Virus record (IMG/VR): IMGVR_UViG_3300012344_000018
Location: 1 to 64,000 of that record
Reading direction: 5' to 3' (one strand)
DNA length: 64,000 bases
Source: a virus
Lineage: Duplodnaviria > Caudoviricetes
Under the pieces are notes generated by a model. It was not told the DNA's origin. It ran no database searches and was given only the letters and a program-made list of their open reading frames with translations. Shown here one piece after another: positions 2,065 through 58,689 of the stretch (positions within the stretch are counted from its first letter, which is position 1; every line of letters starts with the position of its first letter). A program made the translations under genes and the position numbers.

Positions 2065-2102
2065 AAAATAAGTTATTATATCCGCCCCGTAGAAGGATTG
2101 AT

Positions 2103-2110
2103 TAACTTTG
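2103..2110 (+). promoter_or_regulatory. Bacteroidota sigma-A -7 element (TAnnTTTG)
   Basis: TAACTTTG in intergenic DNA just downstream of motif copy 2082. Confidence 0.45.
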
Positions 2111-2240
2111 CAGTATAATTAATAATATAATAGATGAAGGTCAAATTAATGCTGATACTTTGGTGTAAATAGTTGAAGTTATATAGTGTGAATGTTCTTT
2201 TGTTTATTATGCACATCATCTATTTTAAACTTATACTATT

Positions 2241-2387
2241 ATGAATAATGACATTTATAACTATGATGATTCTTCTGTTGAGATTGATGCTTATTGTGTA
2301 AGTCATGATATTGATGATTATGATTTATATGGTGAGATTATGGTCGGAGACGATGAAGATGATAATTGTGATATTCAATTTGAGTAA
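2241..2387 (+). CDS. small highly acidic protein (48 aa, not in ORF track)
   Basis: MNNDIYNYDDSSVEIDAYCVSHDIDDYDLYGEIMVGDDEDDNCDIQFE*; no Lys or Arg. Confidence 0.55.
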   Translation: MNNDIYNYDDSSVEIDAYCVSHDIDDYDLYGEIMVGDDEDDNCDIQFE

Positions 2388-2414
2388 TTAAATAATTAAT
2401 AAGGAGAACTTGTT

Positions 2415-2837
2415 ATGACTAAAGAAATGACTAGTGCTGAGAAATGTCGTAAGACTAAACTTAGTAAAAAGAGTGTGGAAGAACTGATCGATATTATAGT
2501 TCGTAAAGATGATGTTGAAAGACGTAAGGATAAACTTATTTCTTGTCTTAAGACAAACATTGCTGGACTTGAAAAGAAAATATCTAGTCTTCAATCAAAT
2601 ATTGATAATAATGAATCTACTATTGTTTTATTAGATTCTGATAATACAGAACTTAAAAAACGAGTAGATGATGTTATTGCTAACAATAAAATTTTATCTG
2701 CTGAAAATAAGCATTACGATGAAACTATTACTAGTCTTCAAAAGAGTTTAAGTAAAGCTCTTGTAGCAGATACTAAGTGTTTTGTTCTTGGTGGTATAAT
2801 AGTGTTTATAATCATGATGATAATTAGATTCATTTAG
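2415..2837 (+). CDS. coiled-coil protein with C-terminal membrane anchor
   Basis: heptad-like pattern, hydrophobic C-terminus. Confidence 0.75.
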   Translation: MTKEMTSAEKCRKTKLSKKSVEELIDIIVRKDDVERRKDKLISCLKTNIAGLEKKISSLQSNIDNNESTIVLLDSDNTELKKRVDDVIANNKILSAENKHYDETITSLQKSLSKALVADTKCFVLGGIIVFIIMMIIRFI

Positions 2838-2868
2838 TTTAATATTTATACATAAAAATAATCATTGA

Positions 2869-2905: not shown

Positions 2906-2924
2906 TTAATATAGAATTGTAGAA

Positions 2925-4446: not shown

Positions 4447-4629
4447 ATGGAAAATGAAGATTTGTATAGGAGTGATATTAGAAATTATTATAATCAACCA
4501 TTTAATCATATAGTTCTTGATGGTAATAAAGTCTGCATTAAAAATGCTACATTTGATTATCCTGATGGTAAAGCTAATCGTAGAGAAAGACGTAAAGCTA
4601 AACTTCGTAGAAAGAAAGGGAGATTATGA
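4447..4629 (+). CDS. small basic protein
   Basis: 60 aa with NRRERRK-type tail. Confidence 0.6.
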   Translation: MENEDLYRSDIRNYYNQPFNHIVLDGNKVCIKNATFDYPDGKANRRERRKAKLRRKKGRL

Positions 4630-4850
4630 TAAGAGAACTAGATTTTATTCCTCTTAATACTAAGGAAGGATTTCATCTTATTAGAGGAACTATGACTTTA
4701 TGGAATTGTAGTTTTATTGATGCTTTAATTACTATTGCTAAAACTAGAGATTATGCTATTAGTAAAGCTATACATGATATTGAAGTAATTAATGAAGCTA
4801 ATAGTGATTTAATAAATAGTATTTCAGTCTCTTTACGGGGGGGTTTGTAA
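4626..4850 (+). CDS. hypothetical protein
   Basis: 74 aa; 3' end contains a motif copy (SLRGGL). Confidence 0.6.
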   Translation: MIRELDFIPLNTKEGFHLIRGTMTLWNCSFIDALITIAKTRDYAISKAIHDIEVINEANSDLINSISVSLRGGL

Positions 4851-5247: not shown

Positions 5248-5789
5248 GAATAGATTTAAGTAAAGTAGTACTTAAACTTAAAGTTCCTAGTAAGAAAACT
5301 AAAGTTACTGTTAAGTTTAAAGAAGTTCCTCCTAAAAAGCTTACTAAACTTGTTAATGGTTTAGTTAAGCTTAAAGATGGAATTTATACTTGTATTATTT
5401 CTTATACTGAATTTTCTGAACGTATGTTTGGAGACGTTAAGGTTGAAGAAATAACTGATACTATTAAATCTATTGATATTCCTTTTACTGTAGAATCATT
5501 TGATTGTAAGAATTATAAGACTATTTTTCTTAGAGCTAAAACTAGATATGGATATTTAGCTCAAGTTAGAACTGAGTCTCAATGTATATTTGGTAATTAT
5601 CCTAATGAACTTTATATACCTTTTGCTCCTAATTGGATAGTGAGAGGTTGGATAGTTAAAATAGATAATAAACTTCAATTTAAGTTTAGAAATCTTATAA
5701 CTGTTGAAGGTCATATTTATAGATATAAAGGCTTACTTGATGATGATGAATTTGAATGGTTTAAAGATAAAAGAGATGGTAAGAAATGA
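5244..5789 (+). CDS. hypothetical protein
   Basis: 181-aa ORF, overlapping stop/start on both sides. Confidence 0.7.
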   Translation: MRIDLSKVVLKLKVPSKKTKVTVKFKEVPPKKLTKLVNGLVKLKDGIYTCIISYTEFSERMFGDVKVEEITDTIKSIDIPFTVESFDCKNYKTIFLRAKTRYGYLAQVRTESQCIFGNYPNELYIPFAPNWIVRGWIVKIDNKLQFKFRNLITVEGHIYRYKGLLDDDEFEWFKDKRDGKK

Positions 5790-6292
5790 ATATAGAAGAG
5801 AAATTTAGTTTAGCTAATGGTAAGAATCCAACTAATATTGGAAGTTTAACTGATGACCAACGTAAAGCTTATAAAGGACTTATTCAGTTTATCAATAAGC
5901 CTTATGATATAGCAGATTATAAACGAGCTTTAGTTGGTCCAGCTGGAACTGGCAAAACATTCTTACTTAAAGCTATTTTAAAGAATTGCAATTTAAGTTA
6001 TTCAGCTATTGGTTTGTCTGCTCCAAGTCATAAAGCTTGTAGAGTTCTTCGTGAATCTATTAGTGGTATTCCAGTTAAAGTTAATACTGTTCAAAGTGAT
6101 TTTGGACTTAGACTTAATTTTGATATTGATAAATTTGATATTAATAATCCTCCTTTTGACCCTAAAGGTAATGTAAAAGCTGATAAATATAAGCTTTATA
6201 TAATAGATGAGGCTTCTATGGTAAATAAAGGTCTTCTCAAGTTTATAGAAAAATATCTGATTAAAGCTAAGTGTAAGATTATTTATTGCGGT
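5786..6292 (+). CDS. SF1B (Dda/RecD-like) DNA helicase, exon 1
   Basis: Walker A GPAGTGKT, APSHKA, Walker B IIDEASM; ends at YCG just before the intron. Confidence 0.9.
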
Positions 6293-7531: not shown

Positions 7532-8494
7532 GATTCAAGACAATTAAGTCCAGTTAATGAATATCGTTCTGAAGCTTTTTATAATGTTATAACTTATGAA
7601 CTTAAACAAATTGTTCGTCAAGATGAAGATAATCCTATTCGTCCTCTTCTTGATATGCTTCGTAAAGATATAGATAATAAAACTTATAATTTTCTTAATT
7701 ACATAAGTAATCATAGAGAAGCATTTGATGCTAGTTATACTAAAGGTTATAAGGTTTTATATTCTAAAGACTTTGAAAATGAAGTTGAAAGACAATTTAA
7801 TGATGAACAAATAACCAAAAATACAGATTTTGTTCGTATAGTTGCTTATACTAATAAAGCTGTTGGTAATTGGAATAAGTTTGTAAGAAATAGTATTATT
7901 AAAGATGCAGATAAATCTATAGTTACTAAGAATGATTTATTCACTTCTTATGTTACTTTAGTTGATGATTTTAATGATATTGTTATTCGTAATAGTGAAG
8001 ATTATATTGTATATGATGTTGTAAATTATGTACATCCTGACTATCAAATTAAAGGTTTTATGGTCAAATTTCAAGCAATTCATGGTGGAGCTATAACTTC
8101 TCCTTTGTTTATTGTTGACCATACTGATAGATATAGTCTTCAATGTTATTGTAATATTAGTGAAGAAAAAATCAATTCTGCTAAACGTGCTAGTGCTAGT
8201 TCTAGAGCGGCTAAATGGAGAGATTATTATAAGTTTAAAGAATCATGTTTGCTTCTTATTAATATTGGTGATAAGAATGGAAATATACTTTATTCTAGAG
8301 ATTTAGATTATGGTTTTTCTATTACTGCACATAAGTCTCAAGGTTCAACTTATGATACTGTTATGGTTGATATTAATGATATAGTTTATGATAAGTATGG
8401 AAATGCTTATACTAATGCTGTTGAAGTTAATAAAAGACTTTATGTTGCTTGCTCTAGATGTAAAAACAAATTGATTATTCGGTATGGGGTTTGA
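7532..8494 (+). CDS. SF1B helicase, exon 2
   Basis: DSRQLSPV, IVRQ, AYTNKAV, TAHKSQGSTYD, LYVACSR; spliced product about 489 aa. Confidence 0.9.
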   Translation, partial: DSRQLSPVNEYRSEAFYNVITYELKQIVRQDEDNPIRPLLDMLRKDIDNKTYNFLNYISNHREAFDASYTKGYKVLYSKDFENEVERQFNDEQITKNTDFVRIVAYTNKAVGNWNKFVRNSIIKDADKSIVTKNDLFTSYVTLVDDFNDIVIRNSEDYIVYDVVNYVHPDYQIKGFMVKFQAIHGGAITSPLFIVDHTDRYSLQCYCNISEEKINSAKRASASSRAAKWRDYYKFKESCLLLINIGDKNGNILYSRDLDYGFSITAHKSQGSTYDTVMVDINDIVYDKYGNAYTNAVEVNKRLYVACSRCKNKLIIRYGV

Positions 8495-9003: not shown

Positions 9004-9553
9004 TAATTGTGCTTTAAGACTATTTAATGATAAATGTCATTGTCTTAAAGGTGTTGGTAATCCATATTATGGTAAAGTTATAGTTGTACCTAATGTTGAT
9101 TATAATGCTTATAAGAATAAAGGAATGACATTTAGTAAATATGTTGAGATAATAAGGGAAGTTCTCAGTCCTTCTACGGGGGGGCTAGAAGATTATTATA
9201 TAGTTCCGCTTATTAGATGTAAATTGACTGATAAATGTCCTCTATCTAATGATATTATTAAGAAATGTAGTATTTATACTCTTAGTGATATTGTTAATAT
9301 TCATGCTGTTAAAGTATTGTTACTTGGTGATGCTGCTAGATATTTTCTTTCTATAGAAGATATAGCTGATAAAACAAATAAATTGTATGTTACTAAAGAT
9401 AACGATGCTATTAGAGGATATTCTGTTAGTTATTCTCCTTTTATTAAATATGTAGATGATGCTAAATACAAAGAATTTTGTAATCATCTAATTAAATGGT
9501 ATAATGCAAATAAAGATAATAATTATAATGGATATGAAATTAATATATTATGA
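8990..9553 (+). CDS. uracil-DNA glycosylase-like protein (family 4-like)
   Basis: N-terminal CxxCxL, GxGNP, RC..C, LLLGD; located before the polymerase as in crAss-like phages. Confidence 0.6.
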   Translation: MDICNNCALRLFNDKCHCLKGVGNPYYGKVIVVPNVDYNAYKNKGMTFSKYVEIIREVLSPSTGGLEDYYIVPLIRCKLTDKCPLSNDIIKKCSIYTLSDIVNIHAVKVLLLGDAARYFLSIEDIADKTNKLYVTKDNDAIRGYSVSYSPFIKYVDDAKYKEFCNHLIKWYNANKDNNYNGYEINIL

Positions 9554-12398: not shown

Positions 12399-13798
12399 CT
12401 GAAGAAGAAAAAATTAATGAAGCTCTTGATACTTGGGCTTATAGAAAAGGTAAAGGTTCTTTTATGATGCCTTGTCCTTTAGATGCTATTAAGCCTATTT
12501 ATCTTGCTATTCCTAGATTACTTAATAAAAGTCCAACTTCTAATGTTGTTATAGTAGTTAATGACTTTAAGGATAAAGATACTATAAAAGATTATCTTAC
12601 TAAACAAGGTAATATTTATGATGGTATTTATCTTAGATTTATAAACAATGGACAAATTAAAGTTCTTAGTATAGATTGGATAATTGATAATATAAATCAA
12701 TATAGTCCTTCTCTTACTATAATTTATAGTCCTAATAGTTTTACTTTTGCACATCTAGGGTTATTGGATAAAAGTACTTTTAAACTTGTAATTCTAACTA
12801 AAGTTATAACTGATATTGATAATTATTATTCAGTTTGTCCTTTAATTAAAGAATTTAAGCAGAATGAAGTTGATAATATTCGTACTAACCCCCCCGTAGA
12901 AGAAACTAGGATTCCTATATCCATTAAAGATGATACTAAAGAAGCTAAGCTTCTTGATTATTATAACAATAATATTAGAACTGCTCTTAATATATTTGGT
13001 GGTCTTGAAAATCTAAAGAAAGCTATGACTGGTACTACTAATAATACTTCAGCTATAGCTTATTGTGATTATCTAGCTAGACTTAATGGTTGGAATGAAC
13101 ATTTAGATATGACTACTGAATATAATCAGCAAATAGATAAACTCTATAATCCTATTGCTATTCAAGAAAGTGCTAATACTTGTTATGATATGATTAGAAA
13201 GCGTAGTAAACTTATAGCTAATTATTCTTATAAAGTTAATGCTATTCTAGATATTATTGATAGTAATAAAGATAAGAAGATTTTAATTATTAATAAATAT
13301 GCTGATTTTGCTAATGAAATAAGAGATAATATAAATGAAGTTTATCAAAAGACTATATGTATGTCTTATCATGATAAACTAGAAAGTATTCCAGCTGTTG
13401 ATAAAGATGGAAATCCTGTATATTATAAAAGTGGAAGTAAGAAAGGTAAGCAAAAAACAATGGGTATAACCACTCAGAAGAAACTTGCTCAACAATTATT
13501 CAATATGAATAGAATCAATGTACTATCCGTTAGTAATGCTCCTGATAAAACATTATCTGTTGATATTGATATTGTTATAATTACTTCTAGTCTTTGCGAT
13601 GATATAAAATCATATCTTTATAGACTAGATAAAGTAAACTTTACTACACCTATTATATTATATAGTCTTTATTGTGAAAATACAATGGAAGAAAAGGCTA
13701 TTAATGATAAAGTTCTTTCAGATAATCATGTTATTGTTAATAAGACTACTAAAAGTGTTAAAGATGATAATAATTTTGATTATACTATTGTAGATTAA
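12395..13798 (+). CDS. SF2 helicase-like protein (motifs degenerate)
   Basis: 467 aa directly after polB; helicase-C-like C-terminus; no intact Walker A or DExH seen. Confidence 0.5.
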   Translation: MTEEEKINEALDTWAYRKGKGSFMMPCPLDAIKPIYLAIPRLLNKSPTSNVVIVVNDFKDKDTIKDYLTKQGNIYDGIYLRFINNGQIKVLSIDWIIDNINQYSPSLTIIYSPNSFTFAHLGLLDKSTFKLVILTKVITDIDNYYSVCPLIKEFKQNEVDNIRTNPPVEETRIPISIKDDTKEAKLLDYYNNNIRTALNIFGGLENLKKAMTGTTNNTSAIAYCDYLARLNGWNEHLDMTTEYNQQIDKLYNPIAIQESANTCYDMIRKRSKLIANYSYKVNAILDIIDSNKDKKILIINKYADFANEIRDNINEVYQKTICMSYHDKLESIPAVDKDGNPVYYKSGSKKGKQKTMGITTQKKLAQQLFNMNRINVLSVSNAPDKTLSVDIDIVIITSSLCDDIKSYLYRLDKVNFTTPIILYSLYCENTMEEKAINDKVLSDNHVIVNKTTKSVKDDNNFDYTIVD

Positions 13799-16835: not shown

Positions 16836-18065
16836 ATGAAACGTAATATTAATACTACTCAACTTACTAAGGCTTTTATTGAATCTCGTATAAGTCAAGA
16901 AGATATTGTAAGCAAATATCTAAATATTCCTATTGAAACTGTTCGTAATTGTATTGAACATAACAATCTTATCAAGTCTGTATTTAGAGATGATGATACT
17001 GATGGAAGTATGGGTATAACTTATAATAAAAGAGGAAGACTTAAAGTTAGAGATTTTGGAGGTTTTGGTTTCTTTGAAGATGTATATGGAGTTGTAGCTT
17101 ATGTTCTTAGTATTGCATATGAACGACCTATTAGTACTGATAATAAACAAGATTTCTATTTTGTACTAAAACATATTTATAGAACATTTGCAGATGTAAT
17201 TGATAATCATGAACATGATTATTATGTAGATGATGAAATAAAGAATGCTTTAGTTAAAACTAGAAATCGTAAAGCTATTATTGAACTTGTTCCACGTTCA
17301 TGGAATAAGGATGATAAAAGAATATGGGATAAATGGAATGTAAATTTAGCTTATCTTAATACTCATTTTGTAATTCCAGTTGACCAATACTATATTAATA
17401 GAAGTTCTAATCCTGAACCTAAATATAGATATACTAGTAAAGACCCTTGTTATGCTTATATGCTTGGACAAAATCGTCAAGGTATTTATCTAATTAAACT
17501 ATATTTTCCTCTTAGGAATAGGCATATTGATTTAAAGTTTATTACTAATTGTAATGTACTTGAAGGTCTTCCTAATCTTGAACTAGATGATTATGACTAT
17601 ATTATTATTACTAAAAGTAGTAAAGATAGACTTAGCTTAGGAAGTCATTTAGCAAATAAACCTCTTTACGGGGGGGCTGGTAAACTTCTTAAAATAGGAG
17701 TTATTAATTTACCTAGTGAAAATTATAGACTTAAAGCTAATGAATATGAATGGATAAAGAGAAAACTTGCTGATGATGGAATGATACTTAGTTTTCTAGA
17801 CTTTGATAGAACTGGTCGTGAAGGTGCTGAATATCTTCTTGAAACTTATTGTATTCCTTATTTATTTATTACTCGTGGAGAATTTGGTCTAGAAGATTAT
17901 GGTTGTAAAGATTTTGCTGATTTGCATGACAAATATTCTAATTCTCAAATAGATGATTTTATTAAAGATACTCTAAGATATGTCGAAGTTAGATACAAAA
18001 ACTCAGAAGTATGTAATTCCGATGCCTATTTCAAAAGATTATCGGACTTTGATTTGCCGTACTGA
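16836..18065 (+). CDS. DnaG-family primase
   Basis: S.FR.D, ITKSSKD, TOPRIM-like DFDRTG and KDFAD. Confidence 0.8.
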   Translation: MKRNINTTQLTKAFIESRISQEDIVSKYLNIPIETVRNCIEHNNLIKSVFRDDDTDGSMGITYNKRGRLKVRDFGGFGFFEDVYGVVAYVLSIAYERPISTDNKQDFYFVLKHIYRTFADVIDNHEHDYYVDDEIKNALVKTRNRKAIIELVPRSWNKDDKRIWDKWNVNLAYLNTHFVIPVDQYYINRSSNPEPKYRYTSKDPCYAYMLGQNRQGIYLIKLYFPLRNRHIDLKFITNCNVLEGLPNLELDDYDYIIITKSSKDRLSLGSHLANKPLYGGAGKLLKIGVINLPSENYRLKANEYEWIKRKLADDGMILSFLDFDRTGREGAEYLLETYCIPYLFITRGEFGLEDYGCKDFADLHDKYSNSQIDDFIKDTLRYVEVRYKNSEVCNSDAYFKRLSDFDLPY

Positions 18066-20473: not shown

Positions 20474-20555
20474 TCCACTATAACCGCCCCGTAGAAGATA
20501 TTCGCATTCATGCAATTTCTTGATTACGTGAGCGGTTTTATTGTGTCTGCAATAT

Positions 20556-22260: not shown

Positions 22261-22930
22261 ATGACAAAGAATGATTTAAATTATTGGAGAAATAAACTTA
22301 AAGATGTTGTTTCTCCTGAAAATCTTATTACTCCTGAAGTTGTTGCTCTTCGTGACCAACAAAATAAGATGCTTAATCTTATGGCTAAGAAGAATGCCGA
22401 TTACGGTAATGCTTTCAATAAAGGTTGTGATGCTATGGGTGAAGCTTATGGTCTTTGCAGAATGTTTGATAAAGCTAATCGTTTTATTAAACAAGCTGCT
22501 GATAGAGTAAGTGGTTATTATAATCCTAATGTTACTGATGAAAGTATTTATGATACTATTGAAGACTTAGGTAACTATTGTGCTATGTTTTTAGCTTGGA
22601 TTAATACTATAAATGGTGATGGTACACATTCAATACCTTCTACGGGGGGGGTTGGATAAAGATAGTCCTAAGATTGAACTATGTCAACTTATTAGTACTA
22701 ATCAAGTTAAGCTTCTTAGTGAAATTGATGGTACTGATAATACTGACGAAATAACTATAGATTATGGTATTACTGGACTTTGTAAAGATAATGATAATTA
22801 TGTTTATAATGTAAGTGATAGTAGAAGTGAAATTCCAGTTACTAATAGAAAACAAGAAAATGTTGTTGCTGTTAGAACTGAATTAGTAAAGAATTTTAAA
22901 TATAATATTGAACAAGGAAATGGTAGATAA
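22261..22930 (+). CDS. DUF1599/nucleotide-modification-associated domain protein, apparently frameshifted at a G8 tract (22644-22651)
   Basis: KKNADYGNAF...DK..R...ES..DT..DL.NY pattern; ORFs 22261-22659 and 22613-22930 fuse into 222 aa if one G is removed. Confidence 0.65.
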
Positions 22931-27899: not shown

Positions 27900-27949
27900 A
27901 TTAAAGTATAAGCCTTCCTACGGGCGGGCTATAGATTCTCTAGTAACTT

Positions 27950-28108
27950 ATGTTACATATAGTACTAGAAGTATTAGAAGTGCTAGATAAACTAGAACCC
28001 CCCCGTAGAGAGGTTGATGAGTTAAAACTTCTTAGCTTTGATAATTATCTTGATGATATTATTGCTAGTTATGAAGATAATGATTATGTTTGTAATGGTT
28101 ATCAGTAA
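27950..28108 (+). CDS. possible small acidic protein (52 aa)
   Basis: MLHIVLEVLEVLDKLEPPRREVDELK...; contains motif copy 27998. Confidence 0.35.
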   Translation: MLHIVLEVLEVLDKLEPPRREVDELKLLSFDNYLDDIIASYEDNDYVCNGYQ

Positions 28109-30795: not shown

Positions 30796-30873
30796 AGAAT
30801 TTCCTCCTATCTAAGCAATAGTAATCTAAAGTTTAACTTATATTATTTAATTAGCAACTTCTCTACGGGCGGG

Positions 30874-36800: not shown

Positions 36801-39800
36801 CTTGAAGCTCAGAAATAGTATTTTCTAAATCAGTAGTATCAGATAAATCAAATCTAAGAAGTTCTCTACTTTTTCTATTTTTATTAAGTTCATTAACTAG
36901 ACGTTTACCTACTTTAGTTTTAGTTTCTGTTTTATGATAAATAAATGAAGCATCACTATGTGAACGAATATAATCTTCAGCAACACCGTAGTCACTTACT
37001 TTATTATTAAACTCTTCAAGTATTTGTTTAACTAAACTAACTCCACCGAAAAGACTATTATCTTTAAGACTATCATTAGTAATAAACTTATTAATAGCAT
37101 TTCTTCTCATTTTAAAATTTTCAACTACAAAAGCATATTTAATCATATCTATTGCAGCAAGTTTAATAAGAGGATTATCACTATTAATTGCTTGGTCAAA
37201 CATCATATATGCAGTTTCAATATCAACAGTATCATCTTTAAAACTAATAGTTTGTTTAGATTGACCAGTTTGTTGAGCTTCATATTGATTAAACAAATTT
37301 ACTTTGCAAAGACCAAATATACCAGCATCTTCAGTATTAACTTGAAGCCAAGCTACTTTTTGAGCTGGAGTAAGTTTAGCAAACGTTTCAATTTCTTTTT
37401 GTGTAGGATAAACAATATCATTGACTGCAAACTTAATGTCACTAGAAGCGTTATAACCAAATATTCTTTGACGTTCAGCTATTTCATCACTATCATTGTT
37501 TAAACTAAACTGAGCAAAAGTACCATCTTGATTAAAAATAGGATTAACAGTCATTCTTATAGCAGGAGTATTATTATATATTCCACTAAGAACATATTGT
37601 TGAAAATCAGAATATTCTTTCTCATTTATTTGTCTAGTATTATCACTAAAAGAATCTTCAAGACTATAAATTATATCTTTAAACCAATTAGCTTGAGTAT
37701 CAAAAAGCATACTATTAATACTAGTAGAAGTAGAAGTAGCATATTTTAAGAAACAATGAAGCGAAGGATAAGCTGAATCTGAATCAATACTTTGAGTCAT
37801 ATAATGATATAAATCATAAGATTTAATACCATTGTTATCAACAATAAGCCCAGGATATATAGATTCAAGAAATGAAATAGAACTACCATCTTCTTTAGTA
37901 ACATCAAGAACACTATGTTGTCTAGCATTATCTCCATTTACAATAGTTTCAATATCTCTAAAAACTTTATTAGTTGCAAATATAGTTTGTTTAGCTCCAA
38001 ATCTATCAGGATTACAAACTCTTGCTAAACTACTAATACCTTGAGCAAGTTTATTAATATCATTATAAGCAAAGAGAATATTAAGGTCAAATAACAATCT
38101 TTCTACGGGGGGGTTAGTTTGACCATCTTCTTCATTAATTCTTGCAGCTAAATCATCGTAGTCAAGAATAATTCTATTATTATCTGTAAGACTATAATTA
38201 GTTTTAAGTACAGTATTAATTTTATCTATAGCTTTTTGTACACTATCTTCTTCAGTTACACCTATATTAAGTTCTATAGCTAGTTTCTTAATAGCGTTCT
38301 CAATAGGTTTAGAAGTTTCTTCTACATAAATAGATTTATTAGCATTATATTCATTAACAATTCTAGTAATAGCAGGCTGCATAATAAATGCACAAGTAGT
38401 ATCATAATTACTACCAATATCAGGAAGAGTTTTATATACAGCAAAAGTAAAATCATTTACGTTAGGTATAGCACCTTCCTTTACTGCATCAAGAATATGA
38501 GCAGTAGTTTGAGAAGTATAAGCAGTAAGAATACGTCCATCTACATTTTTATTGTCTTCAGACCAACCTATTCTAGTATGAGTAATAGTACATTTACTAT
38601 TACCTAAATCTTTAACGTTATCTTTACCGAATCTATTAATAAGTTCTTTAAGTTGTTTATTGTCTTTATAATGATAATTAATTTGAATAGTATTATCAGA
38701 ATTAATAGTTGGTCTAACTGTGTTACATACTGACACAAATGTATCACGAGTGACACTAAATGCTTTAAGTTTAGCACCACTCATAACATCTTCCTGATAA
38801 TCAGCTTGCTCAAGAAAATCATAAGGACTTCTAGCTTTACGAATTTCTTTAACTACAGGATTGATAACTTTATCACGTGCAGAAATAATATCATCAAAAT
38901 TAGAACGAGAAAGATTCTCTTCAAGAGATTCATCAGATTGAAGAATATCAATCATATCATCAAGAAGTCTATTGTTACGAGCATTACGAGTATTAGCATT
39001 TTCAACATTTTGACTAAGATACTCATCATAAGTCATAAGACCAAGCTTCTTAGCAGCATTATTAAATTTATCAATTCTAGCTTGAAGAATAGCTTTTGCT
39101 TTATCAGACTTAAAGTTTTTCTTATTAATATATTCGTTACTAATAGAATCAACCATATCTTCATGAATAGATATAAAGTTATTATCTGCTTCATCAAGAT
39201 TGGATTTATTCTCACGAATATAATCAGCTACAAACTGAAGTTGTTTAAGATAACTATCTTTAGTAAGTTTACCAGTCTTTTCATTCTTTACAGCTTGAGA
39301 TTCAAATGCAGTATGAGCATCCTTTACAAGTTGTTTTGTTTCATCAGAAAGAGCTTCATAAGCTTCAGATTCTTCAGCAGAAAGTTCTTTACGAGACTTT
39401 TCAAATTGTTCATCTATTTCTTTATTAAGTTGTTCAAAAGCAGCTTTAACTGATTTATCTTTAATCTTATCAGCTTTTTCAAGATGTCTATTTACATAGT
39501 TAGCATAATCGTAAATATCAAGAGTTTCAGAATAAGACTGTTTTCTAATATTACCACGCTTATCTACATAACTACTATATTGAATACCATATACAGAGTC
39601 AATATCAAAGTCAGAACCAGTCTGTGAAACCCAATCATCAGGAACTACAATAGTTGAACCTTGAGCATCATCAAGGAAACCAACTACTTTCATAACACAA
39701 ACAGATTGCTTACCTTCAGTAGGAATACGATAACCAATAAGAGTATCAAGACTAGCATCCTGAAGCTGTTTCAGAAGTCCTCCTATAATATTTCCGTTTT

Positions 39801-42800
39801 CATCTCTAATTTCATCAGCTTCTTTATAACTTCCATCTTCATTCTTAGCAAAACCAAAATTAGACTTAGGAAGCATAATTTCAATATATCTCTTACCATT
39901 TGGATGATATTTAAGTTCTTTGTTTATTGTACTACCTTTAACAATATGTTGTTTATCAGCTTTAAAACCTACATTAGTAATCTGAGCAGCATGGAAACCG
40001 GGAAGTTTTTGACGAGTAATATTTCTATTAAATACAGACTGACTAACACTTTCAAGTTTACTAATAGCATTACTAAGAATCATTGGCATATTAGGATTTG
40101 GTCTTCCTGTCATAGGATTAACAACTTCATTTTCAATAAGAGTTACATAATCCATCATATTACTATCAAGACCAAGACGCATACATTCTTCTTTAAGCTT
40201 AGAGAAGAACATCTTATAATCTATACCACTAATAGTACCATCGTCATTAAATTTAATATTGCCATTTTCATCTCTTGGAATATTAATTTCATCAGCTAAA
40301 GTATTAAAACTATCTTTAATATTAGCCGAGTAAAGTCTAAAGAACTCTTGTTTCTTAGCATAAAGAGGACTTAAAGGACTAATATTATCGATAATCTTTT
40401 TCATTATCTGAATACCAGCTTTATTCTCAGCATCCATATGTTGTGGAGTTTCTTGCTGAGTATAAAGATGATTATAATCATAATATTCAGCATAAGCTTG
40501 AGCGTGAGCATTAAAGTCATCAATATGTTCTTGAGTAACTTCACCAGTTTTAGAATCAAATATTTCAAGCACTCTAGCTTTACCAGCTTTACTTGTCTCT
40601 TCAGTATTAAGTTGGTCAATATTATTATCTTTCATAAGATTATAAACTTGTTCAAGTTGAGTACCTCTAATAAATCTAGGAACAAGAACAAATTCAGCAT
40701 TCTTAATTTGACGAGGAACAAATTTCTTACTTATAGGGTCAAAGTATTGGTCATAATAAAAATTCTTCTGAACTTGAACAAATTCTTTAATATCTCCACT
40801 ACTAAGAGGTTCGTCATTTTGAATCTTTTCAATAAGAGGTAAATACTTAGTTAATTGTCCACGACCAGCTACACGACGAACCCATTCTTCAAATGTAATA
40901 TAAGACTGAGCATCGTTTACAGTAGTACCAGTGAAACCACCACCACGCTTAATACTTCTATCTTTATTTAATTCTGGAGTACCATCAGATTTATATTGAA
41001 TAGGTCCGCCCATCAAATCTCTAGCTTGTTCAATAGTAAGACCTGCGTGTTTAACAAGGTCTTTTACTAAAGTACCATCTGCTCCTTCAGTATGTCCATC
41101 AGGAAATTGTTTTATTACTTTACATTCTTCAGAGGTTCTAATTGTATTCTTAATAGTTATACCTCTAAACTTAGTCATTTGTTGAACATCAATAGGATTC
41201 TTAAAACTAGCAAAACGTTTTTGAATTTCGCCATTATTAAGAGGAGAACCTACTACAGCTAAAGATTCACTAGCGTAATCGCTAGCGTAATCACAAAAAC
41301 CATAAGGTACACCACTAGCTTGACTTTCCTTACTACGTTTCAAGAAAGTCTGAGTATCTTTATAAAACTTAGTATCTCCTTCAAATAAATCATTAAATGA
41401 AATATAAGCAAGTCTATTATTAAGAACAAAATCAGCTACGTTTTGGTCATTAATAAGACCAGCAACATCAAGACCCTTATAAGTATCAAATTTTTCAACT
41501 TGTTGATTAACATAATTAGTTATAAACTTACTAATCATTTGAGTAACTTTATCATTTTGTTCTTTAGATAGATTAACTTGTACTTTGTCGCCATCAGAAG
41601 TAAAAGGAATATAAGCATCAATATCCCCCCCGTAGAGAGAACTGAATAGTTCATTCATTAAATTTTGAGCTACATTTGTAGTCGTACCATCATTATTAGT
41701 TATACTAAATCTATCATCTTTAAATAGACGACCAGTAAAAGTAAGACCTTTAGTTTTATCATTATATTCAACAAAATGTTTATGTCCTTTACCTACTTCA
41801 TATACAGCGTAAGCTTTACGAGCAGATTCTTCATCAAATCCCCAACCTTCTTTAAATTTAGGTTCTCCAAATTTATGGTCTGGACTTTCACCTTCTTGCC
41901 AACGTTGAATCCTACCATTAGCATCAGTAACAAACCATTGATTAATATTATGAGCCATATCAGTAAGTTCTTGAATAAAAACATTACGATATTGTTGGAA
42001 AAGAGGATGATTAATATTAATCTGTTTATCTATAATAACATCTCCTATCTTACCAGTACGATTAGCTTCACGTCTAATATTAGATACAAGACTTTGACGA
42101 ACATCAGAACCAAATTCATTTCCTATATGATAAGGTTTAGCATTTGTAATATAAACATTATTATCAGCATCAAATTCAGCTTTACCTTGAAGTACATATC
42201 TTTCTTGATTTCCTAATTCATCTGTATATGTATAACCAATAGTAATATTATCTCCATTACGATAACTTCCTTTATGATTAGTATCTTTAAGAATTTGATA
42301 GTCTCTAATCTTACGTCTATTAATTCTAGTAGCACGTAAATCTCTAATCATTTGATTATAATCTTCACGAGATTCAACTTTGATAAATTGTTTAAGTTGA
42401 GCCTCAGTAGGAGACTTTTCTACTTTAGGTATATCAGTCAAAACTTTATTAATAGCTGCTTCAACTTCTGCATTATTTTCTATAGTAAATAAATCTCCAT
42501 AATTAGCATCATGATAAGCATATCTAGCTGCTCTAACAATAAAATTCTTAGGAGCATCAGAAGGAATGCGCATAAAATAATTAGCTAGATTAATATCATA
42601 TTTATTATCACTATCAAAATCTTTCTCAGTATTAAAGAAATTAGCAAAACCAGTATAAACATAATCTCCTTTACTCATTCCTGAATAAAGAACATTTTCA
42701 CCTGTATTAGGATTACCAGCACCATTAAACAAACTAATATTAAGAAGTTGTCTAGCGTAAGCAGTTGGAGCATATTTATCTCCTATTTTCTTAAATAATC

Positions 42801-44870: not shown

Positions 44871-47800
44871 CTATCGACAAGTGATAGAAACTTCTCCTTG
44901 CTCTATCAGTGAAGCAAATTTGGCTTGTTCTGACAATGGAAGACTTGTAATAGAATCGAAAACTGTTGAATATGATGAAATACTTCTATCAGGAACAGAA
45001 GAATAATCTATATCTTCATCTTCATCAAATTCATCTTCTGTAACTTCATCAACATTATCATCTATAAGTCCATTATCTTCTGACTTATCTTCATCTTCTT
45101 CTGATTGAAGTGTTTCTTTAGGAATATCTTCAGTTTCACTTTCTTGTTGTGGTACAACATTATCAATTTTTGTTTGTTCAGTTTCATCTTCTTTAAAATT
45201 TAAAGTTCCTTCTTGACTTTTACTTTTAGTTTTTTTCTCATTACTAAATGCTTTAGCAAGAGTATTAAACTCTTTAGCTCTAAGAGATTCATCAGCTATA
45301 TCAAATCCAAATATATTATTGATAAACTCCATAATCCTTTGCCATATAGATTTAGTACCTTTATTAAGATGCTCACCTTCTACATGAACAGAATTAAGAT
45401 ATTGAATAAGACCTTCAGAAGTAAGACTTTCTACTATAAATTCTTCAATAGCAGTATCTTCTTTATTCTTATCAAGAAGCTTATCAAACTTATATTCAGC
45501 TATATGATTAATAAATTCTTTAGCATGATTTTCATCTTTGAAAATATTATCATGTCTAGCATTTACTTCATTGAATTTACCAGCAGCTAAATCAAGAATA
45601 TCAGCATCTATAGCTTGAGTAAAATCATCATAAATAGTTTTAAGTTGTCGTTTAGCTTTAGCTTTATTACGACTAGCATTAATTTGTTTATGAAGATTTT
45701 CATGAATTAAAACTCTAGCAGCACGATTACCACCACCAAGATTAGAATTAGAAGCTATATTAAGCCAATCTTTACCTACAACAATACTATTTGTTTTAGG
45801 GTCAAAATAAGCTACAACTCCAGGGTCACCATTTTCTTTAGTTTTTTCTGCTTGAATTGCTTCATCATCAAAAGTAATATTTTCAGGAAACAAACCATCA
45901 AGAACAGTTGAATATTTATGACCTTTAACTTTATTTTTAAGAGCTTCATAATTTTGTGTTGCTTGGTCTGACATTAATCGTTCTGCAATAGCTGCACCTT
46001 TAGAAACAATATCTTTATCGTTAAGTATATTAGTAATATCTGCTTGAAGAGTATCAGTAGGAGTAGATTCATCAAGTTCTTCTACGGGGGGGTTCTCTTG
46101 CTCTAGTTTATCATGTATCTCTATATTCAAAGTTTGATTACCACCTTGTTTTCTAATAGCAACTCTTCTATAATTAGAACTATTCTCTTGAGCTAAATCT
46201 ACTCTAAGAAGATTATTACCAATAAGAAATCCATTATAAGAACTAGTGTTTATATTAAAAGCATTATTTCCATTATAAGCAGAAATATTAATATGAAATC
46301 CTTCATTATCATAATGAATAAATTTATTCTTAATAGGCATACTTCTATTATTATCAGCAGCTACAAGAGTAGAATTTATATTAACTCTAGTATTTTCTCT
46401 AATATCATCTTCGAGTAAAAGTCTAGCTTCAGCAAATGCTACATTTCTTTTACCTTCAGAAGTTTCAACTTTAATCATATTAGGAACATTACCTAACTTA
46501 TTCTTAGCAAATAAAGTATATTTATTTCCATTATCACAAATAAGTTGAACATTTCCATAATTATCATAATAAACTCTTATACCAGCAAGAATGCCATTTT
46601 TATCAAAAGAATAAATATTAGCAATTAAATCTCTAACGTCATTCCAATCGTTAATATCTTTTATATTGTCAAGTCTTTCTTGAACTTGACCTATAACAGA
46701 TTCAACTAAAGTTTCAAGAACTTGATTTCTAGGTATTTCAGTTTCTCTACCATTATGAATATATGTCATTGGTCTAAGAGTAATAGGATAAGCTGCAACA
46801 TAATCAATAGTACCATTTGTATTAGGAAGACAAAGATATGTTTGATTATTTCTAGAACTTCCAGTAGTACCATAAGTTTGATTACCTAACCCAGATATTA
46901 AAACATAACCATTAGTACCTACACCAATATAAGCTTCTGTTCCAGCACTCAAAGCTGTTGCAATAGGAGCTGCAACTTCTGCTGTATTTCTAGTAGTTCC
47001 ATCTGTCTTAAGTTCTTTATCTTTAGCTCTTATTACTTCACCTTTAGACATCATACCTACAGTAATTCTAAACTCACCATCAGCAATCATATTAGCAGCA
47101 GATATTTCAGCTCTAAGTTTATTATAATAATTATCTATAGAACTACCTAAATCTTCATGAAATATATCAGTATCGTCTTTAAATTCATAATTATATCTCC
47201 ATATTTTAGCAATACCTTCTAAAGCTTTATCATAAGTAGAACCTTGTTCTTGATTTATTTTTAGAATACCAGCTTTAACTGCTTGTTGTATTCTAGGATG
47301 AGTTGCAAAAGCAGTAGCTAATTGTTTACGTTCTTCTTTTGTAAGTTTATCGAAAGCCGCTCTATAAACAATATCATCGAGAGTAGCAAAATCTCCTTCA
47401 CGACTAAGAACTTGTTTAAAGAAAGTTTTAGCAGCTCCATCATTCTCTTCTCTAGTTAAATCTAATTCATGTAACCAACAATCAGCAACTCTAGTATTTC
47501 TACCAGTAATGGGATTTACAGCAGATAATGCTTGCCAACCTATAGTAACACCATTATGTTTATAAAGAATAACTTGAGTGGATTTATTACCTTTATTACC
47601 TATTTCTACTTCAAGTTCATCTCCAGATTGAACTAAAGATAATTCTTTTTCAGCAGCTTTTATACCATCTTCGTCAAGAACTTCAGAAAGATTATTGATA
47701 TTAATCTGATTAAGATAATTACCAGTAATTCTTTCTATATTTCTTTGATAAGTAGTTTTATGACTATCTCTTAAATATCCAGCTCTATCTACTTGATTTT

Positions 47801-50800
47801 CATCAGTAAGAACAAATAATTGTTTTGCTTCATCAGTTTTAAGATAATTCTTAATAGCATCAAATATAAAATCAGAAGATTCAGCTCCTTGTGTTACATT
47901 TTCAACATATCTAAGAATATCTTCAAGACGACCATAATATTTTCCATTACGTAAAGGAAGATTTACATTAGAAGCATATTCCTTAAGAAAATCATTGGCT
48001 ACTTTATTATATTGTTGAGTAAGTTCATTAAATCTATCAAGTGCTTTATCAGCAGTCATTATAATTAAATCAGGAATAGAAGCAAATTTCTTACTCTTAG
48101 CTTTCATCATTTGTTGAACTTTCTCAGGAAGTTTAAACCACGTATCAGTCATTTCTTTAGCTTCTTCTTCACTAAATCCAAGTTTAACAGCTTCATCAAT
48201 ATATTCTTGTTTAGCAACAGATAAATCTAAATCAGGATTACTCTTAACATCATTAAGAATCTTTCTACTCATTCTATCTTTAAATTCATCTTGTTCTTCA
48301 AGAGTAGGACCTTTCTTTTCTTCAACTTTAGTTTCTTCTTTAGGTTTAGTCTGAGGCTCTTCTTCAGGTTTAGTTTCTTCTTCTGTTTGATTAGCTTGGT
48401 CATTAGATGTTTGACTTCCAGTTTCTATTGAGAACCCCCCCGTAGAAGAGTCTGCTGTATTTTCATTATCTTGAGTTTGTTCTTCTTTTTGTTTTTCAGC
48501 TTCTTCTAGAGATTTTTCATAAGCATCTACATCAGCTTGAGTACCAAGTTTACCTCTCTCAAAAGATACAACATTACCTTCATTATCAAATTTAACATAA
48601 GGGTTATAAACTATTTGAACTTCAGGATTAGTTGCAATATCAGTATTGGTATAAAATCTATCATCAGTAATACTTGTACCAGTAACTTCATAAGTTCCAT
48701 CTTCTCCAGCTATAAGTTCATATCCATTATCTACATTATTAGCTTTTGTAGGATTGCCATCAGTATCAAATTTGAAATCTATTGATTTCTTTGGTGTGAA
48801 CTCTTGTTTCTGTTGAGTAACATTCGTTTTTTGCTTATTTGCTGGCTTTGTATTCGATTGTTTATTATCAGATGATGAATTATCCACCGATTGTGATTCA
48901 GTGGATTCTGTATGCTTTTCTGTGTCTTTTTTTGTCGATGATTGATTATTACTTGTATTATCTTGACCATTAGTGTCAGTACTTGTATCTACACTATCAT
49001 CTTTAGTAGTATTATCATCAATAGTTTTATCTTCAGAATCTTTAGCTTTATTTCTAGCATCTTTAATCTTATTACGCATATTAAGTAACTCTTGAATCTG
49101 TTTTCCAAGACGATAATTAAGACCAGAATTAAGATGAAGTATATCAAGAGCTTCTTTAAAAGATGACTTTTCAGAAGTAGTCATAAAAGAAGTAGCCGCA
49201 TCAAAATCATCATTATTATCTACATAATAAGCATCAACTGCATTTTGAATAGATTTGTTTTGTTCATCATTATATTTATCTGCAAGTTCGTTAATAAGCT
49301 TATAACTATTATCAATAACTTTCTTTCTAGTTTCATTCATTGTGTTTTGAAGGAAACTTAATTCTTGAGAAAGAGTATCAGCATTAGTTACAAGTTGAGC
49401 TTGATTATATCTTCTATTAAGTTCTATATCAGAACGAGTAACAAGAAGTTTACTAAATGTATCACTAGGAAGACCAACTTTATCAGCTTTAACAATAAGA
49501 TTATTAATTTCAGTAGTACTAATATTATGTTTATTAAGTTGGTCTAAAACATTATCAGTACTTTCAAAATTAGCAAGTCTTTCATTAAACTTATATTTCT
49601 TAGCAAAAGCTTTAAAGTTAGCCACTATTTGAGCATCGGTTTGTTTTTCAGCACCAGTAACATCTTTACCTTTAAATATATTATCAAACTCTTCTCCTAT
49701 ATTAGTAGCATTTCTAACAATTTGACCATTTTCATCAAAATCAGAATTAATCATGTGAGCAACAGTTAGACGATATTCATTATCATCTAACATTTCACTA
49801 TATTCTTTAAGAGTTCTATCTATATTATCAATAGCTACTTTATCACTAAGAGTAAGCTTATTCTTCATAAGACGTTCCTCCCCGGCATAAAGTGCCGCCA
49901 TAGTATTGCTTATAAGAGCATGACTAGCAGCAGCTCTAAATTGTTCAGGAGTATATTTATTACCAAGAACTTTTTGAATATCTTCATTAGAAAAAGCATC
50001 AGCAATAAGTTTATCATATTGTTGTTCTCTAAGACCAAGAGCCTGAATAGTTTGTTGATACTTAACGTTATTGCTAGCAATTCCTTGAAGATATTCGATA
50101 GGAACTATATCATTCTTATGAGCTTTATTTAAAGCATTATTATCTACAAGATTAATAAGTTTAGATAAATTATTAGTATAACTATCAATAGTATTATCTA
50201 TCTTGACAAGAAGTCTTTGTTGATGTTCTTTAGATTCTGCTTCATTAATTACACCTTTATTTACCATAGCTTTACGAACTTCATCACTAGACATAAAAGC
50301 TTTAAGATAATCAAGATTACCTTTATGTGCAGCATTTAAAGTCATATCTGTAATAAAGTCATTATCTGCTTTTTGCTTAGCAGCAGATGTATCACTTTCG
50401 CCTTTTAGAGTTTTATCATCTTCTCCTATAGAATAAGGATTTTTTCCATCTTTAATTTGTTGAGCACGTTGAATATATCTATTAGTAATAGCAGACCAAC
50501 TATTCATATCTTCTCTACGAGACTTAATTTCTCCTAGTTCACTAATACTAAAAGGAGATTTCTTTTTACTTTCTCCAGTTTGACTATCAGGCTTAGCATT
50601 AGCTCTATCTTCTAATGTTTGTTGAAGTCTTCCAAAACCACTACCTAAATGTTGAAATACAACACCACCCATAACTCCCCAAAAAGCAGAATCATAAATA
50701 GCTCCACTCTGAAGATACTTTTGAAGACGATTGTCAAAAGAAGAATGTACATCTTCACCAAGAAGTTCTTTACCTACGTGCATACCTTCTTCTTGAGCAA

Positions 50801-55110: not shown

Positions 55111-55139
55111 ATTATTAATATTTATATTATTAATAGAAC

Positions 55140-55185
55140 AAAAATAAATAATACTTCCAATAGTATCAATACTATCAGAAGTATT
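55140..55185 (-). terminator. hairpin with T-rich tail
   Basis: aatacttc...gaagtatt imperfect inverted repeat. Confidence 0.4.
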
Positions 55186-55199
55186 TAATTTATTTTATG

Positions 55200-58100
55200 T
55201 TATTCTATACCATATCGTCTTCTATCTCTTTGATTTAATCTTCCAAGTATAGCACCTTTAAGTTCATTATTATTTGTATTCTTGTATAAATTAGCAAGTA
55301 CTTCAGGGCTTAAATCATATCCTAAGCTAATAGCATTTTTAACAACAGAAGGATTATTAGCACTAGATATAGCAGCTATTTCATTTTGTCTGCTATCATA
55401 TCTATTTTCGACACTACTAGCAAAGTTATTCCAAGCTTGAGAAAGACCACTTAAATCAACACTTAATTGCCTAGCTCTAGATAATTCAGCTTCATTCTTA
55501 GCTTGAATTGCAGCATTTTTAATACTAGCAACATTTTGATAATATTGATTTCTAGCAGCAGCATTTCTTGCTCTAACTTGTTGTTCATTAGCAAGATTCT
55601 GATTTCTAAGTTCAACTTCTTTATTACTTTTTTCATCAAGAAGTTTATTAGTTTCCATCATAGCATCAGTATCAGTTTGTTGCATACGACTTAAAGCTCC
55701 TTGAGCACTAGCAGTATTACCGCTAATTAAATTACGACTATTAAGTCTATTACGTTCTACATTAGCACGCTGAGCTTCATTATGATAAGTAGTATCAAAA
55801 GATACTGGAGTCTCATCTACATAATTAGGTAAAGCATAATCAAAATTCAAGTTCTTATAAGCATTACGACTAAACAAGCTTCCACTAAGTGCAGATAAAG
55901 TATCAATACCTAAGCCAATATAATCTTGAGCAGCAGGTTTAAAAGAAGATTGACGACCTAAATAATTATAATCAGAAGGGTTAAAACTAGAATCACTATT
56001 AGCTGTATATTTAGGAATAGCTATAGGATTAAAATTAGGAATAGCTCTAGCAGTAAGGTCTATATTAGCAAAAGAGGGATATTTTCTTCTATTAGTTCCA
56101 TAAGAATAAATAGGAGCAAGCATACCATCTTCGGCTTTAGGTCTTCCTACGGGGGGGTTAGTAAAACCTCCTATTCTTTTAGCTATACGTCTAGCACCAA
56201 CTCTTCTATTTAAAGCTTCTTTCTTAGCATCAGTTTCTTTAGCAGTAGAATAATTTTGATATTTACCAGCACGATAAATAAAGTTACTTCTACCAGCAGC
56301 TCTAGCTGCATCAAATGCTTGATTAAAGTTTCCTACTTTAGAGTAATCAGCTTGACCCGTATAATTACCATTCTTATCGTAAATATAACCTACATTAGTT
56401 TTATGATTAATAATAGTATTGCCTCTACGAGTATATTTAACTCCATTAATAGTCTTAGTCTCTCCATCATGTAATTGATAATTACCTTTAGTTACATTAC
56501 CTGTATATTGAGGAGTAGTTTTTACTTGACGAGAAACTACTTTATTTTTTTCTCTAACTTTTTGCTTACTATCTTTTTTAGTTGATAATTGAGATATAAG
56601 TTTAGAATTTCTATAATTTATAGCATTATTTACAGCAAAATTTGCAGCATCAACCATAGATTGAGTTTTGTCTTTTAAAGAACGTTTATCTTCAGATTGT
56701 AATTGAGATATAAGCTTACTTCTATACATATTGTTAGCAAAATCTACACTTCTTCTACCAGAATCAACCATAGATTGAGTATTTCTTCTTAACTCATCAG
56801 CAGTCATATATTTAGTAGGTTTATTATTATTTTGCTTGCTACTTTCTTTTTTATTATCTCTATTACTAGGAAGTTGTCTTATAAGATAATTTTGATAAGC
56901 AAGATTTGCAGCATTCATTGCATTATCTATATCATCTTGATTAAATTTTGTAACTTGTTGTTTATCTTTTTCACTAGGTAATTGAGATATTAACCAATTA
57001 ATATAAGTATTAGTATAATCAGGTATATTAGTATTTGTATTTATACCTATATTAGTACCAATACTAGCTTTCTTTCTAAGTTCAGGATATTTATTATAAA
57101 CTTTAGTTCTAACATCACTTCTTCTATGAAGTCCAGCAAGTCTTAAAGCATCAACTGCATCAGCTCTAGTAGGAATAGGATAACTTCTATTACCTCCAGC
57201 AAAATCTTTAGATGCTACATTAGGATAAGGATGTTTAGAAGAACCACGGTCTTTAGAAGTTAAACCTCCACCAAGACTGTATTTGTTCTTAGATAAACGT
57301 AAATATCTATTATTTCCTAAAGGTTTATACACAGTCATGCGTTTAGTACTTATACCAGTATTTCCGTTATCATCAAATTTTTTCCAAATACCGCTACCTT
57401 TTTTAATAGCATTGGCAGGTAACGGTTCAGAATATCTTCCATGATGACCTACTTGCCATGTTGTATGTCTAGAAGGAGTGCTAATTATATACCTAGAATC
57501 TCCAATTCCAGCGCTAGTTGTTCCACTCCAAGGTTCGCCCATAGAAGCAGCTTTACCTCCATGAGAATTACCTCCAGCTTTACCAAAATTAAAACTTCTA
57601 CCGCTTTTGCTTTTTACAGTTTTAGTAGGAAGAGTAATATTGCCAGGAAGTTTTCTATATTGACCTATAGTTTTAGCATCTTGAACTTCTCGCATATTAG
57701 TAATGCGATATACTCTATTAGTAGGAAGCATATTCTTTGTAACTATTCCACTACGAACTTGTTTAAGATTTAAACCTCTGCTAATCATAGGAACAGTACC
57801 AGTAATTAAATTAGGATTTGTATTATTACCATAAGCATCAACATCACCTTTATAATAATCAATCATTTGTGCTATATTATAAAAAAGTCCTACAGGATTA
57901 AGGGATGTAATAAAACCTAAACCTTCATTAGCTTTTTGTTGAGCTTGTTCTTTAGTTTGAATATATCTTCTATTTCTATAACTGTCAGTACCAGGAATAC
58001 CTCCTTCAACTAAAGTACTATTTGGATTTTTACTAACTCTTTTAGCTTTAGTTACAGTACCACCAGGTCTATATTTATTACTACCATCATCATTAAGACC

Positions 58101-58689
58101 ATTATTTCTCTTAAAGCTTTGTTGAGCAGCAAATACTTTGTCTTTGTTATATCCTCTCATTACAGCTTGAGCAGGACTTATTCCACCAAGAATAGGTTGA
58201 GCTGAATATATACGTAAAGTTGCCCTTACGTTGAGCAACTTCACCACCTTCAGCTTCGATTTCATTACCGCCAACATTAATACCTATGCCAGTTTGACCA
58301 GTTTCATTTATATCCTCATGAGAACCCCCCCGTAGAAGAAATGTGTTGTTTCCAATCTTCCTAGCACTACCACCATCAGTAATAGCAATATTTCTACTAC
58401 CAAGTCTTTTAGTACCACCTATACGATATTTAAGATTATAATCTTTATCGTCGTAACTAGTTTCAGCATTAGCATAGTTATTAAGTGTACTAGCTAATTG
58501 ATTTTGATTACTAATATCAAGTTGTTGTTGAGCAAGTCTTTGTTGCTCTTCTAAAGCACGTCTTTGAGCTTTAGCTTGTTGACTACTAGTAATAAGACCT
58601 CCAACAAAATTAATTGCAGCAGGAATAAGAGAACCCCAAAATGCTTGAGGTCTCTTATTAGTTTGTTGTCTTTTTAATCGATATACCAT
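55200..58689 (-). CDS. multidomain cargo/ejection protein, apparently one gene frameshifted near 58220
   Basis: ORF 58147-58689 (...GGEVAQRKGN) continues in another frame as LRIYSAQPILGG... in ORF 55200-58277, whose annotated N-terminus looks like out-of-frame sequence. Confidence 0.65.

Follow-up and report, generated by a model that had tools for sequence, protein, structure and literature searches.

A short GC-rich word that recurs through the first 64,000 bases (here called the window) of the 96,237-bp virus record IMGVR_UViG_3300012344_000018 is a genuine genome-wide signal under strong selection. The constraint acts on the DNA and not on the encoded proteins. The copies form independent arrays on the two strands, both under a constraint of the coverage type, and the word belongs to a directional element of about 60 nt. 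The nearest named phage is cr8_1 (Crassvirales, Intestiviridae, Obtuvirinae). The prototype crAssphage, which is more abundant than any other virus of the human gut, belongs to the Intestiviridae, a family for which, to our knowledge, the replication and packaging of DNA are largely unknown. Since the word is kept more strictly than the proteins it crosses, it appears to mark an essential and overlooked step.

Selection on the word and its distribution in the Intestiviridae

The search pattern CCSSCCCGTARRRRR has exactly 16 matches in the window, seven on the plus strand and nine on the minus strand, and none in 100 dinucleotide-preserving shuffles of the window. These are the same copies, with the same coordinates and strands, that had been listed in an earlier reading made from the sequence only. 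The complete 96,237-bp genome contains 24 strict copies (11 plus and 13 minus) and no match to the reversed control pattern; a near-variant with CTCCCCC at genome position 77875 is the 25th copy. With a genome G+C content of 29%, the word accounts for 24 of the 25 G/C runs of at least seven bases, which agrees with the earlier statement that long C/G runs are otherwise nearly absent. Two further features of that reading were also recovered: the A located two bases 5' of the C run is invariant (25/25 copies), and the copies of the window are spaced by 2.2-7.7 kb, apart from one 84-bp inverted pair (27914/27998).

Open reading frames (ORFs) hold 15 of the 24 copies, and in nine of these 15 the word is antisense. 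Coding copies are translated to NPPVE or PPRR in the sense orientation and to STGG, LRGG or LYGG in the antisense orientation, and they occupy all the reading frames which do not generate a TAG stop. Synonymous-codon shuffling of 77 genes (300 shuffles) left a mean of 0.25 cores in genes, with a maximum of two, versus 14 in the real sequence. Together, the diversity of peptides and this codon-aware null bear out the sequence-only reading, which had placed the conservation at the DNA level. The codons used by the word are the rarest ones for their amino acids: CCC represents 2.4% of the proline codons and GGG 2.3% of the glycine codons. Although non-coding DNA makes up only 12% of the genome, it contains 10 of the 25 copies and is therefore enriched in the word; genes of 14 kb and 7 kb, which offer no spacer, still contain copies. 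In this genome, the C run is interrupted in six of the nine intergenic copies and in none of the 15 coding copies. A rule by which intergenic copies are interrupted and coding copies have a pure C7 was rejected, because the interrupted copies are inherited orthologues and both the relative G001 and cr8_1 have intragenic ones.

Four relatives were fetched for comparison, two with about 80% nucleotide identity (G001 and G005) and two with about 70% (G003 and G004). Their orthologues align without gaps across the word sites, and the word, or a shorter dialect of it, is found at the same codons where protein identity is only 35-60%, also inside variable linkers. The word was retained through a change of reading frame at locus 89107 (PTGGL versus LLRGA) and in the primase gene (LYGG versus LRGV in cr11_1). 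Across 53 orthologous pairs, identity was 89% in the 15-nt word versus 60% in its flanks, the value for the core being partly forced by the selection of the pairs. Ends of homology blocks, considered as possible recombination junctions at the word, were found at 25 bp or less from a copy in 8 of about 142 cases, versus about 1.3% expected, although gene ends are preferred by both features. Beyond the window, at genome position 72.5 kb, the two genomes differ in how an ancestral convergent pair decayed, the minus copy being kept here and the plus copy in G001.

All the Intestiviridae genomes scanned carry a dialect of the word, with about 14-34 copies each. This genome, G001 and G005 share the dialect A-N-C7-GTAGAAG (18-25 copies); cr8_1 shows CCSCCCC-GTAAAAGGTATGTA (27 copies); G004 and ctcc615 show CTAGCTCCCCC-GTAGAAG (19-26 copies); G003 shows CTACAACCCCC-GTAGAAGAG (26 copies); and cr11_1 shows GACCCCCC-GTAGAGG (about 34 copies). 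In cr271_1, the core part of the dialect is ...CCCGTAGAAG (15-17 copies). The prototype crAssphage, Carjivirus communis, has 16 copies of ACYCCCC-GTAGAGGATGGA, and the cultured phages crAss002 and 'Rudgehvirus jaberico' have about 14 copies of TTCCCCC-GTAAAGGAG and about 26 copies of CCCCTGTAAAGGAG, respectively. Close relatives can have different dialects, such as GTAGAAG in this genome versus GTAAAAG in cr8_1, and a comparison of dialects with gene modules placed Rudgehvirus closer to crAss002 in all modules. Dialects could serve as lineage markers.

The word is absent from the scanned genomes of crAss001 and cr108_1 (both Steigviridae) and of cr127_1 (Crevaviridae). Two other repeats were observed in this set. 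In crAss001 (MH675552; loci L110-L115), TCCAGAAG is present 40 times on both strands versus six for the reversed control, but the excess is partly peptide-driven, with 16 of these 40 copies sharing a single sense frame. In cr127_1 (MT774393; L266-L270), there are ten copies of a repeat of about 40 nt with the core GGCCACAAGGGCG...GTTCCGAAA, on both strands, three of them as inverted pairs. Neither of these repeats can be equated with the word of the Intestiviridae.

A scan of prokaryotes with a 14-mer of the word, one genome per species, gave at least 120 stretches; among the matches listed (the first 120), nearly all were single, scattered and mostly in unrelated taxa, and no Bacteroidales genome with many copies was found. 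A Chi-like word of the host was therefore rejected, since among the matches listed no genome is rich in the 14-mer, which leaves room for a shorter sub-word read by the host. No paper giving the letters of the word was found, and concept searches of the literature were likewise empty; as far as the searched literature shows, the word is undescribed, and the earlier reading had known of no description either.

Two strand-specific arrays and a directional element

Distances between copies were analyzed by pooling pair counts over ten related genomes, which share ancestry and are not independent, although the pattern holds in each subfamily. Only five same-strand pairs closer than 2 kb were seen versus about 57 expected, and one of the five is an assembly overlap, whereas opposite-strand pairs below the same distance were found at the random rate (51 seen versus about 59 expected). 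About 90% of the neighbours less than 2 kb apart are inverted, and beyond 4 kb the orientation is random (54/110). Strict alternation of strands was rejected: the excess of inverted neighbours is confined to distances below about 4 kb, and the apparent alternation is explained by same-strand exclusion in independent arrays. Spacing on each strand is regular: its coefficient of variation is 0.29-0.6, where randomly placed copies would give about 0.9-1, and P is as low as <1e-4. The mean same-strand gap is about 7-8 kb, with the smallest gaps of about 2.4-4.2 kb in the cleanest arrays, and the strand counts are roughly balanced in most relatives. The copies had been described as a lattice in the sequence-only reading; this lattice is real and genome-wide, but it consists of two mutually independent strand arrays and not of a single mixed one. 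Its description of the word as used along the whole chromosome, with an orientation independent of the direction of transcription, stands.

The consensus of 227 sites from the ten genomes is T(-10) A(-9) N C Y C C C C C G T A R A R G R N N T, with an invariant core of at least 9-12 nt and an asymmetric footprint of about 18 nt. Downstream of it, the motif strand is poor in G and rich in pyrimidines between about +17 and +50, and the overall G+C content is flat. The purine drop at +20..+49 was found in 10 of 10 genomes and 176 of 227 sites, with a mean difference of -0.03 to -0.13 (z of -1.2 to -5.8), and it is present separately in the sense-coding, the antisense-coding and the intergenic copies. 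The presence of this downstream tract in every genome and in every coding class makes the element directional.

No AT-rich unwinding element was found beside the sites, where only the strand composition shifts. Folding with the real flanks gave -7.6 kcal/mol versus -5.9 kcal/mol with shuffled flanks, a weak excess. A hairpin signal was rejected given this weak folding and the lack of covariation, as cr8_1 changed GTAG to GTAA without a matching change in the upstream CTA. A site of the parS/matS type or an iteron was also rejected, since the word is asymmetric and dispersed, with one close pair only in this genome. Among the roles that had been proposed for an array of protein-binding sites, orientation-blind condensation and parS/matS-like anchoring are argued against by the strand arrays and the directional tract.

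Candidate roles of the word

The word is a cis-acting, directional DNA signal, and its reader is probably a phage-encoded factor. An orientation-blind role predicts that a close copy on the opposite strand is redundant, which is not seen and argues against an anchor, a swivel or a titration site. Copies behave as redundant only when they share a strand. With the downstream tract, this points instead to a directional process for which each strand must offer a start or recognition point no more than a few kb from any position. We tentatively favour, as somewhat short of an even chance, the view that the sites are putative points at which DNA synthesis starts on each strand, through priming or nicking. 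The array of each strand would give coverage every 7-8 kb approximately, and a strand-specific event would begin at the site and proceed downstream. This event might be the RNA priming of complementary-strand synthesis by the DnaG-type primase of the phage or its loader or, alternatively, a site-specific nick whose 3' end would then be extended.

The phage encodes a DnaG-type primase, a DNA polymerase, an ATP-dependent ligase and a Mu Gam-like protein. G/C runs help primer formation at the ColE1 origin and at the mitochondrial CSBII, and sequence-specific priming signals exist in the plasmid ssi sites, the complementary-strand origin of phage G4 and the ColE2 Rep primase. As in the proposed role, ssi/PAS sites, the G4 origin, the ColE2 Rep primase sites and the mitochondrial OriL/CSBII are strand-specific, directional start signals for the complementary strand; however, they are present as one or a few structured sites per replicon, whereas the word shows about 12 unstructured and even copies per strand.

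Several points weigh against start sites for DNA synthesis. No reader protein was identified among the candidates compared by tblastn, Pfam and fold. DnaG-type primases are known to read trinucleotides, not words of 15-20 nt, and although the YTA on the G strand fits the start sites of Firmicute DnaG, any word this long would be likely to contain such a match by chance. A per-strand spacing of 7-8 kb is long for Okazaki fragments, and some opposite-strand pairs are only 32-46 bp apart, which would be risky if both were nicked. Finally, the known nick motifs (T5, tf/Rembedalsseter) are on one strand only and are not evenly spaced (PMC11780129).

The word falls in the general class of genome-wide directional DNA words and matches no known member on its defining features. 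In the case of the nick motifs of T5, phiKMV, and tf and Rembedalsseter (WACTRTGAC), localized single-strand interruptions were physically shown (PMC11780129). These motifs are like the word in being short, enriched far above chance, located in and outside genes whatever the coding strand, and kept across a phage group despite low nucleotide similarity, with unknown function (PMC11780129). They differ in that they are 9-20 nt long, confined to one strand, uneven and clustered toward one side of the genome (PMC11780129), whereas the word forms equal and evenly spaced arrays on both strands. Enrichment and retention across related phages, in and outside genes, are thus common to both, and confinement to one strand is not, with 11 plus and 13 minus copies in this genome.

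Extended to the family, the priming or nicking reading would mean that Intestiviridae replicate or repair their DNA through distributed per-strand start sites, about a dozen 18-nt words per strand, read by a family-specific protein. We regard this as conceivable but doubtful; if true, it would be a genome-wide mode of initiation not described for any phage. The role of the word is directly testable, since two phages of the family are in culture, crAss002 in Bacteroides xylanisolvens and 'Rudgehvirus jaberico' in B. cellulosilyticus, and each has a dialect of its own.

Among the other explanations, an unlikely one is that the word acts like Chi in controlling a helicase-nuclease or recombination machine that translocates along the DNA; each orientation would then halt degradation, or set off recombination, for enzymes arriving from one side. 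Chi (RecBCD/AddAB) and KOPS/SRS resemble the word as directional signals that run through genes over the whole genome and are read one-sidedly by a translocating enzyme. Strand-specific coverage fits this role, as each strand would need a copy near any break; the phage has a RecD/Dda-like helicase in addition to the Mu Gam-like protein, and the annotation of cr8_1 names, among the orthologues, an exonuclease and a recombination protein of the RecT type. However, the known Chi and KOPS words are 5-8 nt long, host-wide and skewed with the direction of replication, whereas the word is 12-18 nt long, phage-private, strand-balanced and evenly spaced. Furthermore, none of the genomes among the matches listed (at least 120 stretches) has its 14-mer in abundance, no RecBCD- or AddAB-like enzyme was seen in the phage, and the Gam-like protein already protects the ends. 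Because dialects differ between close relatives, a Chi-like reader would have to be encoded by the phage.

Oriented sites for a structural or motor-associated protein, such as the terminase, a packaging or ejection checkpoint, or a factor for condensation or partition, are likewise improbable; this is the kind of role that the sequence-only reading had put forward. The even spacing, the retention across the family and the long asymmetric footprint would suit such sites, but orientation-blind use would deplete close opposite-strand copies, which occur at the random rate. In addition, packaging and ejection are one-directional, so that a balanced two-strand array is unexpected, and no binder is known.

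We give little credence to a promoter or terminator for the virion RNA polymerase of the phage, comparable to those of T7 or SP6, in which a purine-rich start comes after a word of about 18 bp. In length and asymmetry the word would suit this role: T7/SP6-type promoters are also asymmetric and conserved over about 18-23 bp, with a purine-rich 3' part, and SP6 transcripts start with GAAGAG, a start region that GTA-GAAGAG resembles. The promoters of the crAss virion RNA polymerases are unknown, and five of the six intergenic copies with an interrupted run in this genome point along genes. In contrast to promoters, the copies are not placed upstream of genes and co-directional with them, as 15 of 24 are within ORFs and 9 of these 15, that is about half of the coding copies, are antisense; five minus copies are located within the block from 1 to 30 kb, where all the genes are on the plus strand. 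The even per-strand spacing has no transcriptional logic, no shared motif was found upstream of the phi14:2 early transcripts, and no single-subunit RNA polymerase was recognised in the phage.

In Cluster A mycobacteriophages, the stoperators (asymmetric 13-bp sites at which the L5 gp71 repressor acts) are similar to the word in having about 20-30 copies of one asymmetric word over a phage genome. They differ in being placed mainly in short intergenic spaces, oriented with transcription and used by a lysogenic repressor, whereas the orientation of the word ignores transcription and many copies are intragenic; no repressor or integrase annotation was seen in the phage.

There is next to no chance that composition or peptide repeats produced the word, or that it is a miniature mobile element or an artefact of assembly. 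Homopolymer runs do attract errors, the frame is broken at the G8 run of one copy and the cr8_1 record ends within a copy, but dinucleotide shuffles (0) and synonymous shuffles (0.25) rule out composition and codon usage, the absence of indels versus orthologues rules out small in-frame insertions and mobile elements, and the same sites are found in independent assemblies, in cultured isolates and in other subfamilies.

Copies in the window and neighbouring genes

Copies of the word in the window, with their gene context and their counterparts in relatives
Position	Strand	Copy and context	Relatives or evidence
2082..2096	+	Intergenic, interrupted run CCGCCCC	Orthologous copy in G001, G005
4829..4843	-	GTAAAGAG variant, antisense, 3' end of small ORF 4626-4850	G001 homology block begins here
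9170..9184	-	Antisense in UDG-like gene 8990-9553, STGG	Same position in G001, G005, G003, G004, cr8_1
12889..12903	+	Sense in SNF2-like gene 12395-13798, NPPVE	Orthologue alignments
17662..17676	-	Antisense in DnaG-type primase gene 16836-18065, LYGG	cr11_1 has its own dialect in the same place, LRGV
20484..20498	+	Intergenic, interrupted C run	Pattern match and relatives
22636..22650	-	G8 run that shifts the frame of the phrog_1485 gene (ORFs 22261-22659, 22613-22930)	
27914..27928	-	Intergenic, left half of divergent 84-bp pair	Pair kept in G001, G005, cr8_1
27998..28012	+	Right half of divergent 84-bp pair	Pair kept in G001, G005, cr8_1
30859..30873	-	Immediately past the stop codon of giant gene 30874-44781	
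38099..38113	-	Sense in 4635-aa gene 30874-44781 (DFDID RNA polymerase motif), NPPVE	
41625..41639	+	Antisense in 4635-aa gene 30874-44781, LYGG	
46078..46092	-	Sense in 2396-aa gene 44871-52061, NPPVE	
48435..48449	+	Antisense in 2396-aa gene 44871-52061, STGG, within variable low-complexity linker	
56143..56157	-	Sense in 1025-aa gene 55200-58277, NPPVG	
58325..58339	+	Antisense in ORF 58147-58689, LLRGG	Kept in 4/4 fetched relatives

The 4635-aa ORF, which contains two copies of the word in opposite orientations, shows at residue 1724 the sequence DFDID, the catalytic motif of crAss virion RNA polymerases. In the phrog_1485 gene, G001, G005 and cr8_1 have a single ORF of 217-218 aa that reads ...IPSTGGLE... 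across the word, and the G8 run of this genome may reflect either an error in assembling the homopolymer or genuine slippage.

Candidates for the reader were compared by tblastn across 14 genomes, 11 of Intestiviridae and three from outside the family. Of the proteins present in 11 of 11 Intestiviridae and in none of the three outsiders, three are encoded in the replication block that separates the SNF2-like helicase from the primase: a RecT-type protein (13862-14785), the product of ORF 14847-15668 and an SSB-like protein (15762-16730). ORF 14847-15668 encodes 273 aa, has the recombination protein on one side and the SSB-like gene on the other, lies upstream of the primase, and has 67 unnamed homologues; no Pfam, PHROG, PDB-sequence or fold (Foldseek) match was obtained for it. 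Its AlphaFold2 model has a pLDDT of 74 (best VIA Z 3.6), and the B3/MraZ-type barrels that this predicted structure retrieved (Z 3.4) are only a lead. The product of ORF 28274-28807, a neighbour of the 84-bp inverted pair, had been called RepL-like from the letters of the window, a label that is not supported: it has no Pfam match at E<=1, and of the 14 genomes just two, cr8_1 and G004, gave a tblastn match to it.

The records of G001, G003, G004, cr8_1 and cr11_1 have ends with exact overlaps of 55 or 75 nt, and the cr8_1 record starts and stops at a copy of the word. Direct terminal repeats as physical ends were rejected, because these overlaps look like assembler k-mer overlap. The G runs of the word explain why some assemblies of these phages break there.

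The gene for a Dda/RecD-like helicase is found as two ORFs (5786-6298 and 7655-8494) separated by ORF 6488-7492, which has an HNH endonuclease domain; this split of the helicase at 5786-8494 looks like an insertion of the homing-endonuclease or intron type. Another HNH endonuclease ORF (9550-10122) is located between the UDG-like and the DNA polymerase genes, which are adjacent in cr8_1.

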